Source of the DNA: Promethearchaeota archaeon
Lineage (GTDB): Archaea > Asgardarchaeota > Lokiarchaeia > Sigyniarchaeales > SOKP01
Direction: 5' to 3'
Assembly: GCA_048940925.1 (NCBI GenBank)
Contig: JBHLOC010000034.1
Location: 6,079-22,968, forward strand
DNA: 16,890 nucleotides
The first letter of the stretch is position 1. Every line of letters begins with the position of its first letter. Positions 334-7,686 of the stretch are shown here, in pieces. The notes below the pieces were generated by a model, which was given only the letters and a program-made list of their open reading frames with translations, did no database searches and was not told the DNA's origin. The translations under genes were made by a program, and so were the position numbers.

Positions 334-1623
334 ATGCTTGATATTGAATTATTCCGGAATAATATCGACAAGATTTTAGATTCAGAGAAAAAGAGATTTA
401 AAGATCCATCAAATGCAGAAAAAGTTTTTGAGTATGACAGGAAGTGGCGTGGAGCTATTACCAAATATCAAGAACTAAAGAAAAAACATAATGAAACATC
501 GCGTCAAATAGGGAAATTCAAAAAAGCTGGAAAGACTTATGAAGCTGAGGAAGCAATAAGAGCTACAAAAGAGTTGAAAGAACAAATAGATGAGTTAGAG
601 CAACTCAAGCAAGAATTTCTTGAACAAAGAGAAAAATATCGTTATATTGTGGGTAACTTGCTGCATGAGTCAGTCCCTGTTGGTGAAACAGAAGAAAATA
701 ATGAAATTATTAGAATATCTGGGACATTACCGAAATTTAATTTTACTCCTTTAAACCATGTTGAATTAATTGAAACCATTGATGGTGTAGACACTAAAAA
801 AGCTTCTGAAATTGTAGGATCACGATTTTATTATTTAAAAGGAGATTTAGTTTCACTCAATTTAGCTTTAATGAGATTTGCACTAGAATTTTTAGAAAAA
901 AAAGGATATTACCCACTATGGACTCCATTTTTCATCAAACATGATGTTATAAAAGCTGCTGCTGAACTAGCTGATTTTGAAGAACAATTATACAAAATCC
1001 AAGATGAGGATTTATTTATGATCGCAACTTCGGAGCAAACAATTGCAGCTTATCACTATGATGAAATTATAGAACCTGAAAGATTGCCCATTAAATATGC
1101 TGGAATATCTTCATGTTTTAGAAGAGAAGCTGGATCTCATGGTAAGGATACACTAGGTATATTTAGAGTACACAGGTTTGAAAAGGTTGAACAATATATT
1201 TTTTGTAAACCAGAAGAGTCATGGAAATTTCATGAAGAATTAATTAAAAATGCTGAAGAAATTTACACACAATTAGAATTACCTTATAGAATTGTAAATA
1301 TTGCATCTGGAGAATTAAATGATAATGCCGCCAAAAAGTATGATCTTGAGGGGTGGTTTCCTGCTTCAAAAAATTATCGAGAGCTGGTGAGTTGCAGTAA
1401 TTGTACTGATTATCAAGCAAGAAAATTAAAAATTAGGATAGGAAAAGTAGGTACTAATCAACCAAAAGAAATTCTACACACTTTAAATTCAACAGCAATA
1501 GCAACGAGCCGGACTATTTGTTGTATATTAGAAAATTATCAAAACGAAGATCATTCAATATCAATCCCATTAGTACTTCAGAAATACATGAATGGTAAAA
1601 AAGTTATTAAAGCAATAAAATAA
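334..1623 (+). CDS. serS: Serine--tRNA ligase (class II, archaeal/eukaryote-type)
   Basis: N-terminal MLDI plus coiled-coil tRNA-binding arm; motifs LIATSEQ-like (MIATSEQ), motif 2 CFRREAGSHGKDTLGIFRVHRFEKVE, KKYDLEGWFP, ELVSCSNCTDYQARKL and motif 3 HTLNSTAIATSR. Confidence 0.98.
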   Translation: MLDIELFRNNIDKILDSEKKRFKDPSNAEKVFEYDRKWRGAITKYQELKKKHNETSRQIGKFKKAGKTYEAEEAIRATKELKEQIDELEQLKQEFLEQREKYRYIVGNLLHESVPVGETEENNEIIRISGTLPKFNFTPLNHVELIETIDGVDTKKASEIVGSRFYYLKGDLVSLNLALMRFALEFLEKKGYYPLWTPFFIKHDVIKAAAELADFEEQLYKIQDEDLFMIATSEQTIAAYHYDEIIEPERLPIKYAGISSCFRREAGSHGKDTLGIFRVHRFEKVEQYIFCKPEESWKFHEELIKNAEEIYTQLELPYRIVNIASGELNDNAAKKYDLEGWFPASKNYRELVSCSNCTDYQARKLKIRIGKVGTNQPKEILHTLNSTAIATSRTICCILENYQNEDHSISIPLVLQKYMNGKKVIKAIK

Positions 1624-1637
1624 GAGGAAAAGTAAGA

Positions 1638-2876
1638 ATGATTGAAATATCTTTAGAGGAATTTGAAGATTTTTTTAAAGACAGAATTGATTCTAAATTT
1701 GCTAAAATAAAAAAAGCAACTTCTAAGGCTCTCGGGGAAATCCGAGAAAACATGATTGACATTAAAATTTGTATGGATCACTTTCTAGAAGCAGGAGAAG
1801 AGAAAATTGAAGCAAAAGCTCAAAAATCATTACATTTTTTCATAGATCGTATTAAAAAAGAGATTGATGAAATTGAAATTCCTGAAGCAGAAATTAATTA
1901 TGATAATCTAAATGCTTTATTAAACTCTATAAAAAGATTATTTCCTAGTATAAATGAAATAGCAAGGAAATCATTACCTAAATTTCAAAAAGAGGTACAG
2001 GGCCAAATAAAAGAGCTTAATTACATTACAAGAAAGCTTGGAAATAAACAAAAATCTTTGGATGATTTTTTAAGAAAAAAATATACTGGAGTCAAAGAAG
2101 CAGAAGATCTTCTGAAAAAATTACCGAAATTAGTTAATCTAAGGGATAATATAGAAAAAGCGAAGATTGATTTAGATGCATTCGAGAAAGATAGTGAACA
2201 AAAAAAAAAGGATCTGGGAAATTTGAATTCAGAATTAATAAAACTTGAGAATAATGAGTTGTTTCAAAAATTGGACACCGAGAAAAACACTTTATTTCAA
2301 TTAAGGTTAAAAATTAATGATGAAATAGGTTTTAAGAAAGCATTAAAAAAATTGAAATTTGATTTGGAGAAAGGGACATATAATATCTCAAATATTAATT
2401 TGAATTATCTTAAAGAGTTCCTAAAAAGTCCTATAAAAAAATTGATTGAGGAGTCAGATAGAACCGATTTCCCTAGGTTTTCCAGTTTAATGGTTCAATT
2501 ACGTCATGCATTAGAAGAAAGTAAATTAATTCTAAAATCTGAAACTAAAGAAAAGACAATTGAACAAATAAATATGATTTTTGAAGAGAAAACACTACAA
2601 AAAGATATTGAGAATTATTTACAAATTAAAAAGCGTATCGCAGAAATTGAACACAAAATTAATGATGCTGGGTTAGCTCAGAAATTAGAAGATATAAAAA
2701 ATAATATATCTTCTACAAGTGTAAAATTAGAACATGTAGAAGCAGATTATAATCGAAAAAACAAAGATTATACAAGATATCTTAGTAATTTAAAAAAAGA
2801 GAGGGAGGAATTTCAAAGTGCTGTAGAGCAAATTTTAGAAGAACCAATAAAAATTAATATCACTTTTTCGTTCTAA
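1638..2876 (+). CDS. Uncharacterised all-helical/coiled-coil protein (412 aa)
   Basis: Long ORF with an SD-like GAGGA at 1624-1628; K/E/L/I-rich heptad pattern; no Walker motif or TM segment seen. Confidence 0.85.
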   Translation: MIEISLEEFEDFFKDRIDSKFAKIKKATSKALGEIRENMIDIKICMDHFLEAGEEKIEAKAQKSLHFFIDRIKKEIDEIEIPEAEINYDNLNALLNSIKRLFPSINEIARKSLPKFQKEVQGQIKELNYITRKLGNKQKSLDDFLRKKYTGVKEAEDLLKKLPKLVNLRDNIEKAKIDLDAFEKDSEQKKKDLGNLNSELIKLENNELFQKLDTEKNTLFQLRLKINDEIGFKKALKKLKFDLEKGTYNISNINLNYLKEFLKSPIKKLIEESDRTDFPRFSSLMVQLRHALEESKLILKSETKEKTIEQINMIFEEKTLQKDIENYLQIKKRIAEIEHKINDAGLAQKLEDIKNNISSTSVKLEHVEADYNRKNKDYTRYLSNLKKEREEFQSAVEQILEEPIKINITFSF

Positions 2877-2898
2877 TGTTTTAAAGTTACATTAGAGT

Positions 2899-3630
2899 CT
2901 ATTCTTTCTTTAAAATTTTAAATGCTCTATTATTAGTCGCACTTGTTTTCTTTATTCGTAATTTTAAATTTTCTTTTAAAAATTTAAATACTTCCTTATG
3001 TTTTAAATTAAAAATTTTTAAATATTGGTAAGCAAGCACCAAATCTTGGGTGATATCGATGTCGAAACCTGCTCGAAAAGAATCATATATAACCAGTTTT
3101 TCTATTCCCTTTTTAACGGCATTGTTGATTAAAGCCACTAATGAGGGGATATGTGGGTGTGAAAAAGAGGATTCTATAATATCAGGAGGATTTCTCCCTA
3201 AAATTGAGATTCCAGCAGAATGAATGGCAGGACATACAACTAATTGATTTGATTTTACAAGTGTGTTGATTTCATTGAAATTTTTAGCTGAAATTAATAT
3301 TAAATCTAGAAAAGAAAAAATAGTTTGTTCAGCATGAAACTTGTTGATAGCAATGTCATTAAGGTCTTTGATAACCATATCAAAAGATTTTGGAGGTGTT
3401 GTTAAGTCTTCTTTGATTCCAATTAAGCCAAAATCTTCTGAAAGCTCTAATATTTCAGGAGTATTACAATATATGATTTTATGGTCGAAAAATTCTACGT
3501 TTGCTAATATTGTGCCAAGATCCTTAAACATTGCTATCGTTAGCTCTTTTAATTGATCGGCTGTAAAACAGTCTCTGAGACGTGATTTTGTTCTCGTTAA
3601 TGGAGCAATGGGTACAAGTAAAGAACTCAT
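2899..3630 (-). CDS. cofC: CofC-like 2-phospho-L-lactate/phosphoenolpyruvate guanylyltransferase (F420 biosynthesis), divergent
   Basis: N-terminal LVPIAPLTRTKSRL...L..AMFKDL resembles the CofC pattern VPVK...AKSRL...ML.DV; central DLILI corresponds to DLPL; C-terminal FDIDITQDL corresponds to DIDTPEDL. Confidence 0.75.
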   Translation of the reverse strand: MSSLLVPIAPLTRTKSRLRDCFTADQLKELTIAMFKDLGTILANVEFFDHKIIYCNTPEILELSEDFGLIGIKEDLTTPPKSFDMVIKDLNDIAINKFHAEQTIFSFLDLILISAKNFNEINTLVKSNQLVVCPAIHSAGISILGRNPPDIIESSFSHPHIPSLVALINNAVKKGIEKLVIYDSFRAGFDIDITQDLVLAYQYLKIFNLKHKEVFKFLKENLKLRIKKTSATNNRAFKILKKE

Positions 3631-3763: not shown

Positions 3764-4327
3764 TTATTTGAGCTTATTTAAAATCTGAATTGATAATCTT
3801 TCAAATGCTTCATTTACATTTTCATTCAATTTTGCAGAAGTCTCTAAATATTCAATTCTATATTGCTTTGCTTTTTCTTTAGCTTCTTCTATTTGGACCT
3901 GTCTTTCTTCTCTTCTATCAATTTTATTACCTATAATCATAAATGGAACATCTCCACTTAATTCCTTGACTTTTGAGATCCAGAAATCAATATTATTAAA
4001 TGATTCTCTATCTAAAATATCATAGATTATAAATGCGCCAACAGCTTGAACAAAATAATATTCATTGGAGAATAACTTATCATGTTGACCTCCCAAGTCC
4101 CAGAAATACAACTTAAAACCCTTTTTTTTAATGTCAGCCTTCAATTTAGGATTTTTGAGATCTAGTTGATCAATAATATTTAATAGATCAATTTCTTTAA
4201 TTAAGAAATTTGCTCCTATTGTTTGTTGATATTCTTCACTAAATTTATCATCAACATACCGCGCTAAAAGACTGGTTTTACCTACTCCTGCATCTCCACA
4301 TAAGATGCATTTACCACGGTAAGACAT
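3764..4327 (-). CDS. Rab-like small GTPase (Ras superfamily, eukaryotic signature protein)
   Basis: G1 GDAGVGKTS, G2/RabF1-like TIGANF, G3 WDLGGQ, G4 GNKID, G5 ETSAK; no C-terminal Cys prenylation motif. Confidence 0.95.
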   Translation of the reverse strand: MSYRGKCILCGDAGVGKTSLLARYVDDKFSEEYQQTIGANFLIKEIDLLNIIDQLDLKNPKLKADIKKKGFKLYFWDLGGQHDKLFSNEYYFVQAVGAFIIYDILDRESFNNIDFWISKVKELSGDVPFMIIGNKIDRREERQVQIEEAKEKAKQYRIEYLETSAKLNENVNEAFERLSIQILNKLK

Positions 4328-4357
4328 ATCGTTTTTTCCCCGAACTTCCTACTGAAA

Positions 4358-4373
4358 TAAAATATATTTTAAA
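4358..4373 (-). promoter_or_regulatory. Candidate TATA box for the Rab-like gene
   Basis: TTTAAAATATATTTTA on the minus strand, about 30-45 bp upstream of ATG 4327. The AT-rich background weakens the call. Confidence 0.35.
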
Positions 4374-4406
4374 TCTTAATTCTGAATTTTACTTTTTTTA
4401 ATATAT

Positions 4407-4421
4407 TCGTAATAATTACGA
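4407..4421. promoter_or_regulatory. Perfect 7-1-7 palindrome TCGTAAT-A-ATTACGA, candidate operator upstream of the Rab-like gene
   Basis: Read directly from the sequence; CG-containing arms in the trmB-rab intergenic region. Confidence 0.45.
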
Positions 4422-4451
4422 TCTAATTTATTTTTAATCATACAAAGTTAT

Positions 4452-5297
4452 TTAATTTGTAGAGGGGGTCTTCTTAGATGCTAATTGTATAAGTTTACAT
4501 TGGCTTGTTACAAAATACTTAAATAAGTGTTCGTAACCAATTAATTGTTTAGGAGCTCCATTCTCCAACCATAATCCTGAAGTATATTCCGGAGCCTCTT
4601 TTACTTGATCCAGGGTAGTGAGGAGAAATTGGTTATCAGTTATTAATAATCCAAACGGTAAAACATTATCTCCTTCAATAGAATGGATTGTGACTGAAAT
4701 TTTAAGTAATTTCTTTATCTCTTCTTTTAAAAGTTCGTTATATTTCAATGCAATAACAACTTGAATATTTGATGAAAATTTCTTATTCCAAAGCTCTCTT
4801 AATACCCAATCATATCCGCCTAGCTCTTGCATGAGTAAATCAGGAGTAATAATAAAAAAAATCCTTTCTTCCGCTGAACTAATTAACTCCTTAATTTTTT
4901 TCCTTATTTTTGATCTTGAATTAATAGCCCACACACGAGGCTCAGATTCTTCGGTATTTACTTCTAATTCACTTATAACTTTTTCTAAAACTAAAGTATC
5001 ATCAATTTTCTGTTTATATTCTTCACGAATCACTTTAAAAATTCGTTCTATCGGTATTACTTGATAATTTGCTCCCCTCTTAACAGGTTCTTTCTGAATG
5101 AATCCTTTTTCAATCAGCCTATTTAATGAATCATAAACTCGCGCACGATCTACTCCTGAGTATTTTGCTATATCTGCTGGACTCAAAAATTTATATTTGC
5201 ATAATGTTAATAAGACTTTAGAGTCATTTTTTGTGAACCCGAGGGATTGAAGAGATTCCTCAATTTCTTGTGTTTGAAGTGATTTTTTACTAGGCAT
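4452..5297 (-). CDS. TrmB-family transcriptional regulator / TrmBL2-like chromatin protein
   Basis: N-terminal wHTH LGFTKNDSKVLLTL...DIAKYSGVDRARVYDSLNRLIEKGFI, a coiled-coil linker, and a C-terminal PLD-like effector domain (IKELISSAEERIFFI...GLLITDNQFLL). Confidence 0.92.
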   Translation of the reverse strand: MPSKKSLQTQEIEESLQSLGFTKNDSKVLLTLCKYKFLSPADIAKYSGVDRARVYDSLNRLIEKGFIQKEPVKRGANYQVIPIERIFKVIREEYKQKIDDTLVLEKVISELEVNTEESEPRVWAINSRSKIRKKIKELISSAEERIFFIITPDLLMQELGGYDWVLRELWNKKFSSNIQVVIALKYNELLKEEIKKLLKISVTIHSIEGDNVLPFGLLITDNQFLLTTLDQVKEAPEYTSGLWLENGAPKQLIGYEHLFKYFVTSQCKLIQLASKKTPSTN

Positions 5298-5327
5298 ATT
5301 TGGATTGTATAAGAAAAATCAAATTCA

Positions 5328-5340
5328 TTATATATATTTT
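5328..5340 (-). promoter_or_regulatory. Candidate TATA box of trmB (short-leader or leaderless transcript)
   Basis: AAAATATATATAA on the minus strand about 31-43 bp upstream of ATG 5297; no SD before the ATG. Confidence 0.45.
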
Positions 5341-5710
5341 GGCTATATTACATTAGTCAAATAATTTATATTTTAATCTTTTTTTTTAGAAAATTTAAAA
5401 TTTCGATATCAAGAATTGAATCATTTTATATTATTTATTATTAAAAGAAGTTTATGTTTTAACTGATTACTGAACATATATCCAGTATTCAATCCGGAAT
5501 GAAGCAAAATTTCATATAACAAAAGTTCAAATTTTAGTAATTCTGTACTCCTTAAAAATTTAGCAATGGTTAATAATGGGTTAATTAATTTTCGAAGAAA
5601 ATATTGAAATATTAATAAAAGTAAAATATCAAAAAATTAAGGATTCACGGCTTTATCTAATAAAAATCAACTTTTTGATTTTGTCGGAAAAATTATTTTA
5701 ACATTAATAA

Positions 5711-5776
5711 ATCGATCTGATCTTCGAATCAATATGATCTCTTATGAGAGATATGATCTCTCATTGATTCGAATCA
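5711..5776. repeat. Nested inverted/direct repeat array directly upstream of the histone TATA box
   Basis: Inverted repeat TTCGAATCAAT 5723-5733 / ATTGATTCGAA 5763-5773; inverted repeat ATGAGAGAT 5744-5752 / ATCTCTCAT 5756-5764; direct repeat ATATGATCTCT 5732-5742 and 5751-5761; perfect palindrome TGATTCGAATCA 5765-5776. Confidence 0.85.
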
Positions 5777-5781
5777 TAACA

Positions 5782-5790
5782 TTTATATAA
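5782..5790 (+). promoter_or_regulatory. TATA box (TTTATATAA) of the histone gene
   Basis: Matches the archaeal TTTAWATA consensus, about 70-80 bp upstream of ATG 5861, implying a leader of roughly 45-50 nt that contains the SD. Confidence 0.7.
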
Positions 5791-5848
5791 TAGAAATGTG
5801 TAGTAATACTTAATTAACATCTATTTAACAAAATTATAAAAAATTAGT

Positions 5849-5854
5849 GGAGGA
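5849..5854 (+). promoter_or_regulatory. Shine-Dalgarno GGAGGA of the histone gene
   Basis: GGAGGA 6 nt before ATG 5861. Confidence 0.8.
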
Positions 5855-5860
5855 ATAAGA

Positions 5861-6097
5861 ATGGCTAAAAAGAAGGCTCCTGCTAAAAAGAAAGCTGAAG
5901 GGTATATTGCAAAAGCACCTATAAGAAGATTAATGAAAAAAGAAGGCGCAGATCTAGTCGCTGCTGAAGCACTAGACAAATTGATTGATTTCTTAGAAAA
6001 AAGTGCTGCTACAGCAACTAAAGACGCAATTAAGGTTTGTAAAGCTGACAAACGCAAACGTGTGACTGCTGCTGATATCAGAGCCGCTACTAGATAA
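5861..6097 (+). CDS. Archaeal histone (HMf-like fold) with a 13-aa Lys-rich N-terminal extension
   Basis: APIRRLMKKEGADLVAAEA...DAIKVCKADKRKRVTAADIRAA aligns without gaps to HMfB APIGRIIKDAGAERVSDDA...EAIKLARHAGRKTIKAEDIELA; strong SD, TATA box and a downstream T-tract. Confidence 0.95.
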   Translation: MAKKKAPAKKKAEGYIAKAPIRRLMKKEGADLVAAEALDKLIDFLEKSAATATKDAIKVCKADKRKRVTAADIRAATR

Positions 6098-6153: not shown

Positions 6154-6687
6154 TTAATAATTCTCAAAAAATTCCTTATTCAAATATTTATTAATATTCT
6201 GATCAATTTTTTTCTTTACATCTTTCAATCCTTCAGGTAATACTCTAGTTTTTCCTACTATATCAATAAATCCGAGTTCAGATCCATATCTAGGTACCAA
6301 ATGGATATGTAGGTGTTCAATGCTACCACCAGCATCTCTTCCTTGATTTATACCCACATTATAGCCCTTAGGATTATAGAGGTCATCTAGTAATAATTGA
6401 ATTCCTTGAATGGCTCGAGTTAGATGAAGCATCTCCTTTTTCGTCAATTCAAGGAACTTAGTTATATGTCTCCTAATAACTATCATTAAATGTGCCGGGT
6501 TATAAGGATATATATTTAGAACAATAAAACATATATTATCTTCGTAAACTTTTAGAATTTTAACACGCTCATCATTATCTCTTACAGCACATAGGATGCA
6601 GTCTACCTTGGGCCTTGCTTTTCCCTGAACATAATCTAATTTTCCTAGGGCTTGCAACCAATTTTTAAATACCAAACTTCTAATCAC
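6154..6687 (-). CDS. HIT-family nucleotide hydrolase/transferase (Ap4A phosphorylase/Fhit-like)
   Basis: CILC Zn motif, LNIYPYNPAHLM, GYNVGINQGRDAGGSIEHLHIHLVPR (HxHxHxx triad); GTG start. Confidence 0.92.
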   Translation of the reverse strand: MIRSLVFKNWLQALGKLDYVQGKARPKVDCILCAVRDNDERVKILKVYEDNICFIVLNIYPYNPAHLMIVIRRHITKFLELTKKEMLHLTRAIQGIQLLLDDLYNPKGYNVGINQGRDAGGSIEHLHIHLVPRYGSELGFIDIVGKTRVLPEGLKDVKKKIDQNINKYLNKEFFENY

Positions 6688-7332: not shown

Positions 7333-7686
7333 TTAATATTTACCTTTAGGTCTCGGTTCCGGTTCAATACCAGTAGATTTTAATTTTTCAATATTTTCAA
7401 GTAAAATTTCAATTGGCGTACAATATATTACTTCTAGAGATTCATGATCTATAAAGATTTGCCCAACAATACCTAAACCCATCAAACGATTATCATTGTC
7501 TATAAATGTGTGATCTATATTCATTTTGATTGCCATTCTATCTCCATCAAGTTCTACTAAAGAAGGTTGGCAAGCGGTATACCCAGGACCTCGGTTTTGG
7601 ATAAGATAGTTCATTAATGCATAATCTAACTCATCATTAATCTCCCCCCGTTCTTGAAGGATCTTAACTATAATCGGTGCTGACAT
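7333..7686 (-). CDS. Hypothetical protein (117 aa)
   Basis: Clean ORF filling the gap in a co-oriented run; globular composition; no recognised motif. Confidence 0.8.
   Translation of the reverse strand: MSAPIIVKILQERGEINDELDYALMNYLIQNRGPGYTACQPSLVELDGDRMAIKMNIDHTFIDNDNRLMGLGIVGQIFIDHESLEVIYCTPIEILLENIEKLKSTGIEPEPRPKGKY

Follow-up and report, generated by a model that had tools for sequence, protein, structure and literature searches.

A TrmB-family gene paired with a Rab-like GTPase gene across Asgard archaea, with a tailed histone gene as a lineage-limited neighbour

When a gene for a TrmB-family DNA-binding protein, a gene for a Rab-like small GTPase and a gene for a tailed histone lie side by side in an Asgard archaeon, do they form one system, and which of the three belong to its core? 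The locus that raises this question lies in a 16,890-nucleotide stretch of DNA (the window) from a Promethearchaeota archaeon (contig JBHLOC010000034.1). Its 4.8-Mb assembly has a G+C content of 29.6%, is Lokiarchaeial (Promethearchaeia, Asgard) by its named relatives and falls into the same order as Promethearchaeum syntrophicum MK-D1, Candidatus Lokiarchaeum ossiferum and Candidatus Harpocratesius repetitus. A first-pass annotation of the window had grouped all three genes into a candidate chromatin-control module. Judged by gene order and orthology, the part of that module that stands is the trmB-like gene followed by the Rab-like GTPase gene, a deep, co-inherited module and putative operon found across the phylum. 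The histone does not hold up as part of the core; rather, it is a looser, lineage-limited neighbour. The gene content itself was read correctly, as Pfam matches identify a TrmB-family gene, a Rab-like GTPase gene downstream of it and a divergent tailed histone gene, and the region between the divergent genes is indeed the longest gap between open reading frames (ORFs) in the window. The elements concerned are:

4452–5297, minus strand: trmB-like gene, 281 amino acids (PF01978, 59.5 bits)
3764–4327, minus strand: Rab-like small GTPase gene, 187 amino acids (PF00071, 150 bits)
4328–4451, minus strand: poorly conserved 124-bp gap between the trmB-like and GTPase genes
5298–5860, between the trmB-like gene (minus) and the histone gene (plus): divergent control region (spacer), 563 bp, 20% G+C
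5861–6097, plus strand: short-tailed histone gene, 78 amino acids (PF00808, 38.4 bits)

The two minus-strand genes are tied together first of all by their distribution. The GTPase gene lies directly downstream of the trmB-like gene in 20 of 20 genomes of the same genus. For the other families of the order we counted loci with room, that is, with enough contig beside the trmB-like gene to judge its neighbours, and the same arrangement is present in 14 of 14 such loci and, in a second set, in 11 of 11, at TrmB identities of 28–37%. All 76 named loci with room carry the pair, including those of P. syntrophicum MK-D1, Ca. L. ossiferum and Ca. Harpocratesius, and it occurs in nearly all Lokiarchaeales genomes searched, both cultured species included. 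A search of 201 genomes of the phylum recovered full-length TrmB-like orthologues in further Asgard families, and a Rab-like GTPase gene follows in 14 of 17 loci from five of them. The junction measures 124 bp in the source genome and elsewhere narrows to 8–40 bp; the genes abut with 0 bp between them in a family whose genomes measure 1.4 Mb, and they overlap by 4 bp in one other Asgard lineage. Such short or overlapping junctions fit co-transcription of the two genes. We gauged conservation by aligning 59 loci from the source genome's own family (family f1) and scoring identity to the source sequence, with third codon positions (0.51) as the neutral level. By this measure the 124-bp gap reaches only 0.42, and the palindrome near 4408–4420, which had been put forward as part of a binding region, is not conserved.

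The partner is also the same GTPase throughout. The source genome encodes at least 64 Ras-like GTPases, and of its TrmB-family genes only the one at 4452–5297 adjoins a gene of this kind. In a tree of the 64 paralogues and 27 TrmB-adjacent GTPases from other genomes, all 28 adjacent proteins fall on one side of a single split (support 0.83), together with just one extra paralogue. On this tree, the TrmB-adjacent GTPases are one orthologous group. Conserved adjacency and shared orthology together make it probable that the TrmB-like protein and the GTPase form a functional unit. Full-text literature searches returned no paper that links Asgard small GTPases with TrmB, so the pairing appears to be unreported; what is new here is its distribution beyond Lokiarchaeales, the orthology of the GTPase, and the family-level link to a tailed histone and a conserved dyad.

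The GTPase is Rab-like in sequence. Its closest relatives of solved structure are Rab8A, Rab1A and Sec4 (E ~1e-29), and the top 60 are all Rab/Ypt/Sec4-related. The motifs G1 to G5 (GDAGVGKT, the switch-I threonine, WDLGGQ, NKID and SAK) are kept across the orthologues. The protein ends in ...ILNKLK and thus lacks a C-terminal cysteine prenylation motif, and no aligned orthologue has a C-terminal cysteine. In its Rab-type sequence and complete set of G motifs, it resembles both Rab8, Rab1 and Sec4 and the Asgard Rab-like GTPases described by Tran et al. (2024; PMC10933270), which are likewise without a prenylation tail. By contrast, the orthologous group described here is tied to a DNA-binding protein, and its members in family f1 add an interswitch insertion. 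The insertion (residues ~47–72; window ~4110–4190) spans ~18–25 residues and is longest in family f1, shorter in other Lokiarchaeales and absent in some. The switch-II glutamine is replaced by asparagine, threonine or histidine in some orthologues. In MK-D1, small-GTPase genes generally lie outside operons with roadblock, longin or TRAPPC3 genes, and TrmB is not mentioned in that account (PMC10933270).

The TrmB-like protein contains a PF01978 winged helix-turn-helix at residues 16–83 (59.5 bits against a gathering score of 25.6), the sole Pfam domain seen. An AlphaFold2 model computed from a 38-sequence alignment (mean predicted local distance difference test score, pLDDT, 91.6; mostly above 90) places a 28-residue coiled-coil helix (83–110) after the winged helix, followed by an alpha/beta domain (121–269). 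When the model was searched with Foldseek, ranks 1–8 were all TrmBL2 chains (5BPD, 5BOX and 5BQT), aligned over 271–281 columns at E ~1e-15; TrmB came after these, and then PLD-fold proteins (Nuc, NucT, FAM83 and PLD3/4). A broad family profile aligned with TrmBL2 5BPD end to end (positions 2–261, E=1e-36). A tight profile of the orthologues showed no preference between TrmB and TrmBL2, and its matches were confined to the N-terminal ~150 residues. The comparison with TrmBL2 drawn by the first-pass annotation is therefore apt at the level of architecture. The protein falls far short of the TrmBL2 equivalog NF041141 (27.2 bits; cut-off 530) and of the TrmB/TrmBL1 equivalogs NF040851 (33.9 against 600 bits) and NF047390 (49.3 against 650 bits). 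The sugar-binding half of TrmB aligns with neither the protein nor the tight profile, the alignments stopping at ~146–155, and PF11495 was not detected at E<=0.01, whereas the same search found it in classic TrmBs. Residues R51, R53, V54, Y55 and D56 of the recognition helix are nearly invariant across the order. On the strength of the model and these alignments, we take the protein to belong to a separate Asgard clade within the TrmB family, one built like TrmBL2 and lacking the sugar-binding subdomain.

With TrmBL2 of Thermococcales (TK0471/PF0496; 5BPD, 5BOX, 5BQT), it shares a winged helix, a long coiled-coil helix, one PLD-like domain and a similar length (~260–280 amino acids). The sugar-binding subdomain is missing in both, and both come from histone-bearing organisms. 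Their sequences are only 16–18% identical, and the likeness is one of architecture in a predicted model, DNA coating and abundance being known for TrmBL2 only. We know of no TrmBL2 that is paired with a GTPase. With TrmB and TrmBL1 (3QPH, 2F5T), the PF01978 winged helix, the coiled coil and the first effector subdomain align; in contrast to them, the TrmB-like protein lacks the C-terminal sugar-binding subdomain, and its presumed input is the GTPase rather than a sugar. TrmB and TrmBL1 bind dyads near the B recognition element (BRE) and the TATA box, the same position that a dyad occupies in the histone promoter of the present locus.

How, then, does the histone relate to this pair? The protein passes PF00808 (38.4 bits; cut-off 21.4) and comes just under the cut-off of the NCBIfam archaeal histone NF043032 (49.3 against 50). 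It is tailed, as had been claimed: its Lys/Ala/Pro tail, MAKKKAPAKKKAE, is ~12 residues long and extends ~10–12 residues beyond the genome's other histones, so that it is the only one of the genome's ~6–7 histones to bear such a tail. The tail is coded by a tandem duplication, a direct DNA repeat with an 18-bp period (window 5864–5896). Within the genus its length varies by AP/AKK units, giving proteins of 77–84 amino acids, and the orthologues of MK-D1, L. ossiferum and Harpocratesius carry Lys/Ala/Pro tails of at least 20 residues. Three full-length paralogues have a conserved histidine in the motif K/R/M-H-x-G/N-R-K-K, where the tailed histone has K-A-D-K-R-K-R (residues ~57–67; window 6030–6060), and its alpha3 is ~2 residues shorter than theirs. 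This replacement and the shorter helix suggest that the tailed histone may oligomerise in a different way from the other histones of the genome. It resembles the tailed nucleosomal histones of Asgard archaea (Henneman et al., 2018, PMC6136690; Schwab et al., 2024) in bearing a Lys-rich N-terminal tail on an archaeal fold. Short tails of 5–10 residues have been reported for Lokiarchaeota CR_4; the tail here has ~12 residues and varies between species by AP/AKK units. Our literature searches found no published link between a tailed Asgard histone and a neighbouring regulator.

In the source genome's own lineage, the linkage of the three genes is strong. The order CofC-like gene, GTPase gene, trmB-like gene, spacer, histone gene, HIT-family gene is kept in 20 of 20 same-genus genomes, and the order from GTPase through trmB-like gene and spacer to histone in nearly all family f1 loci with room, across at least six genera. 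Gene order is thus conserved in relatives, a point on which the proposal of a module depended. Four further genomes of the genus seemed to lack the locus; two of these have contig breaks inside it, and two are single-contig assemblies without the trmB-like and tailed histone genes. In the two drafts (G009 and G011), the contigs end in or beside the trmB–histone spacer, whose 20% G+C may assemble poorly, and in the two single-contig genomes (G006 and G023) no DNA similar to the locus was found. Beyond the family, the same divergent tailed histone adjoins the pair in two other families of the order, represented by two genomes from genus g5 and one from family f3, at TrmB identities of ~33–36%. 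The spacer measures ~410–780 bp wherever the histone gene directly adjoins the trmB-like gene. Elsewhere the arrangement is lost. From this pattern, the histone linkage looks ancestral to the order, with several losses.

Three of the first-pass statements about the spacer fare differently. Against 300 dinucleotide shuffles, it is not enriched in palindromes: inverted repeats number 9 (5.5 +/- 3.2 in shuffles, p=0.17), perfect 10-bp palindromes 1 (2.4, p=0.93) and direct repeats 5 (3.3, p=0.26). Nor does it hold the densest repeat structure in the window, as 26 of 327 sliding windows match or exceed its inverted repeats. The highest inverted-repeat density lies at ~2451–3100 (17 per 563 bp against 9 in the spacer), covering the ends of an ORF at 1638–2876 and of the CofC-like gene. 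In length, a crude ORF model puts the spacer at about the 95th percentile of all gaps in the genome and at the 92nd of those between divergent genes. Its mean identity is 0.56 and its centre (5398–5517) lies at or below neutral (0.29–0.43), while four islands stand out, at 5358–5397 (0.69–0.77), at 5598–5737 (0.64–0.70), at 5758–5817 (0.67–0.95) and at the ribosome-binding site (0.86). The elements within them are:

5358–5397, minus strand: AT-rich conserved block ~60–100 bp upstream of the trmB-like start (0.69–0.77; 0.85–0.95 within the genus)
5679–5692, plus strand: TTTTGTCGGAAAAA box ~100 bp upstream of the histone TATA box, with a weaker copy at 5589–5602, 92 bp further upstream
5720–5731: distal partial dyad copy, ATCTTCGAATCA, 45 bp upstream of the proximal dyad
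5765–5776: proximal perfect 12-bp dyad, TGATTCGAATCA, a candidate operator, separated from the TATA box by 5 bp and sharing 2 bp with the expected BRE
5782–5817, plus strand: histone core promoter, with the TATA box TTTATATAA at 5782–5790 and ~27 nearly invariant bp
5849–5853, plus strand: GGAGG ribosome-binding site, 7 nucleotides before the histone ATG (identity 0.86 in 5838–5857)

The block at 5358–5397 is a likely trmB promoter, with a candidate BRE/TATA element of the trmB-like/GTPase transcript. On the other side, the histone promoter is conserved at 0.95 (5778–5797) and 0.84 (5798–5817) across the 59 loci, and its ~27 nearly invariant bp would reach the expected transcription start. The element that could connect the two genes is the dyad. 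Its TTCGAA core is present in 37 of 60 family f1 loci and is one or two bases off in the others. Some loci carry variants that keep the symmetry, such as TGTTTCGAAACA, in line with a site that a dimer recognises; since the sequences are related, this is weak evidence. A hairpin with 23-nucleotide arms, present only in the source genome and its closest relatives, arises because there are two copies of the palindromic site. Both g5 genomes have a perfect palindrome with the ATTCGAAT core (TTATTCGAATAA and CATTCGAATG) ~60 bp upstream of the histone TATA box, a position that corresponds to the distal copy at 5720–5731, and the f3 genome has a different perfect palindrome, of 16 bp, 5 bp before the histone TATA box. 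In MK-D1, L. ossiferum and Harpocratesius, where the tailed histone gene is unlinked, the 330 bp preceding that gene contain no TTCGAA. Unlinked trmB genes likewise have neither TTCGAA nor the ATTCGAAT-core dyad upstream. Because the ATTCGAAT-core dyad is found only in spacers shared by trmB-like and histone genes, it tracks their linkage; this fits a local operator, as a correlation only.

Two broader roles for these elements were considered and rejected. As a regulon motif the dyad fails: the genome (4.8 Mb) contains a single exact copy of TGATTCGAATCA, roughly what chance would yield for a sequence of 12 bp, and its one-mismatch matches are without pattern. The TTKTSGGRAAAA boxes, related to TTTTGTCGGAAAAA, lie upstream of tailed histones in all genera examined, whether linked to trmB or not. 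In several genera they precede the TATA box by ~85–100 bp, and often there are two of them, spaced 90–110 bp from each other. The motif is 2–4 times commoner than its reversed control in three complete genomes, with ~35 copies of TTGTCGGAAAAT in Harpocratesius. Because there are dozens of copies per genome, a histone-specific element is ruled out, and TTTTGTCGGAAAAA/TTKTSGGRAAAA is probably a general site.

Taken together, these observations suggest a mechanism in which the TrmB-like and GTPase genes would be co-transcribed. With the sugar sensor of TrmB missing, the input may come not from a sugar but from the GTPase, whose GTP or GDP state would alter DNA binding by the TrmB-like dimer or oligomer. 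In family f1, the TrmB-like protein would act locally on the shared 563-bp control region, the likeliest putative binding site being the ATTCGAAT-core dyads at 5765–5776 and 5720–5731. From that position it would govern how the tailed histone gene, and perhaps its own operon, is transcribed. The steps differ in strength. That the GTPase acts directly on the TrmB-like protein is an evenly balanced proposition, and we are doubtful, without dismissing it, that the TrmB-like protein controls the histone gene. A weak form of the whole chain, in which a DNA-binding unit is coupled to a GTPase and linked locally to the histone, falls slightly short of an even chance, and the full form, in which the Rab-like GTPase by its GTP/GDP state gates a TrmBL2-like chromatin or transcription protein that controls a tailed histone variant, is improbable.

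Several observations weigh against this mechanism. Orthologues of the tailed histone lie far from the pair in MK-D1, L. ossiferum, Harpocratesius and one family f4 genome, and no histone gene accompanies the pair in the 17 loci of other Asgard families. Because the pair lacks a linked histone in most other lineages, its primary role cannot depend on this neighbour. Even within family f1, one genome has no histone near the trmB-like gene, and in another (L082, ~1150–3500) ~1.7 kb of extra coding DNA splits the shared spacer. Combined with a TATA box, the dyad occurs at 9 sites genome-wide against 10 for a control palindrome, showing no enrichment, and its conservation may merely reflect the very strongly conserved promoter around it. 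The recognition helix is conserved across the order, yet loci with unlinked genes lack the dyad. TrmB and TrmBL1 recognise the operator TATCAC-N5-GTGATA, and the ATTCGAAT dyad is unlike it. On the side of the GTPase, two family f1 genomes have none within 1.5 kb of the trmB-like gene. No natural TrmB–GTPase fusion appeared among longer relatives, a search that could have missed fusions of ~470 amino acids; the longer TrmB-family matches carry TrmB domains only. A complex prediction for the two proteins scored 0.00, which gives no verdict and weighs neither way.

The explanation that best survives beside the proposed mechanism is that the histone is a neutral neighbour left over from an ancestral gene order. 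In that case the pair would act on a different process or on different targets, and the elements of the histone promoter would serve unrelated factors. The absence of the histone from the pair's surroundings in most lineages speaks for it, as do the survival of both pair and histone after separation by an insertion and the upstream TTKTSGGRAAAA boxes, which travel with the histone whether or not trmB is near. However, a divergent arrangement kept in three families with the same histone orthologue and a long spacer, at a regulator identity of ~35%, is more than drift usually preserves. The dyad, moreover, is present only where the genes are linked, and both genes are jointly missing from the two single-contig genomes of the genus. 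We consider neutrality rather unlikely on this balance.

A second alternative keeps the TrmB-like protein on chromatin and takes it off the dyad. The protein would be a TrmBL2-type chromatin protein with little sequence preference, the locus a co-expressed cluster of chromatin genes, the dyad the site of another factor, and the GTPase a modulator of DNA coating on a global scale. TrmBL2 is an abundant chromatin protein that coats DNA non-specifically and competes with histones (PMC3031468; PMC7325993). The fold of the TrmB-like protein matches TrmBL2 over its full length, the sugar-binding subdomain is missing, and the dyad is a single-locus element rather than a regulon motif, all of which this explanation would accommodate. 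It has to contend with the equivalog score (27 against 530 bits), the 16–18% identity and an orthologue profile that fits TrmB and TrmBL2 alike over the N-terminal 150 residues only. The trmB-like gene also lacks the strong ribosome-binding site and perfect TATA box of the histone gene. We judge this alternative unlikely, although it deserves to be kept in view.

That the long spacer is instead kept for an unannotated small protein or a structured non-coding RNA is very improbable: its length is conserved and 5598–5737 lies somewhat above neutral, but Rfam (E<=1) and tRNA scans of the whole window gave no match, its only small ORFs (21 and 33 amino acids) lie in unconserved sequence, its centre is at or below neutral, the hairpin is confined to a few genomes and the histone leader has no stable fold (z=0.81). 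Nor is trmB coding sequence duplicated in the spacer: here and in the 59 relatives, the longest stretch that the two have exactly in common is an AT-rich 13–15 nucleotides.

The genes that flank the locus add context to its boundaries:

2899–3630, minus strand: CofC-like nucleotidyltransferase gene (PF01983, 44.3 bits)
6154–6687, minus strand: HIT-family gene, beyond the histone

The CofC-like gene directly follows the GTPase gene throughout family f1 and not in other families; the gene after the GTPase in genus g5 shows no homology to it. Its product passes the PF01983 cut-off and reaches 62.8 bits in TIGR03552 against a cut-off of 105, and because it stays under this equivalog cut-off its substrate is uncertain. 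In three loci of another Asgard family (L155–L157), an HIT-family gene lies ~1.7 kb upstream of the trmB-like gene, with an unrelated membrane protein gene and a 158-amino-acid ORF between them and with the histone absent. Two ORFs of the window, at 1638–2876 (plus strand, 412 amino acids) and 7333–7686 (minus strand, 117 amino acids), matched no Pfam family at E<=0.01.

The small GTPases of Asgard archaea tend to be interpreted as precursors of membrane traffic in eukaryotes. Predicting their partners is difficult, since their genes seldom share an operon with a known regulator (PMC10933270). In many Asgard lineages, the present locus included, genes of a single orthologous group of Rab-like GTPases are tied to the gene for a TrmBL2-like DNA-binding protein. 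Since the tie is present in both cultured Lokiarchaeia, the partnership is directly testable with recombinant proteins. An independent hint, by analogy, of a connection between Rab-like GTPases and chromatin in Lokiarchaeota comes from the Rab-GTPase–histone fusion proteins, which are found in Lokiarchaeota only (Schwab et al., 2024, PMC11390915). They too couple a Rab-like GTPase to a chromatin-type DNA-binding protein, in the same archaeal class, but do so in a single polypeptide with a truncated-alpha3 histone fold, whereas in the source locus the GTPase is separate, its partner is TrmB-like and the histone encoded nearby is nucleosomal, with an almost complete alpha3. Together with the tailed-histone neighbour in family f1, these fusions raise the possibility that a GTP switch acts on chromatin or transcription. 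If GTPase-gated, TrmBL2-like control of a tailed histone proved true, it would be functionally reminiscent of the coupling between Ran and chromatin, and it would suggest that some 'Rab-like' Asgard GTPases originally had roles related to DNA rather than to membrane traffic.

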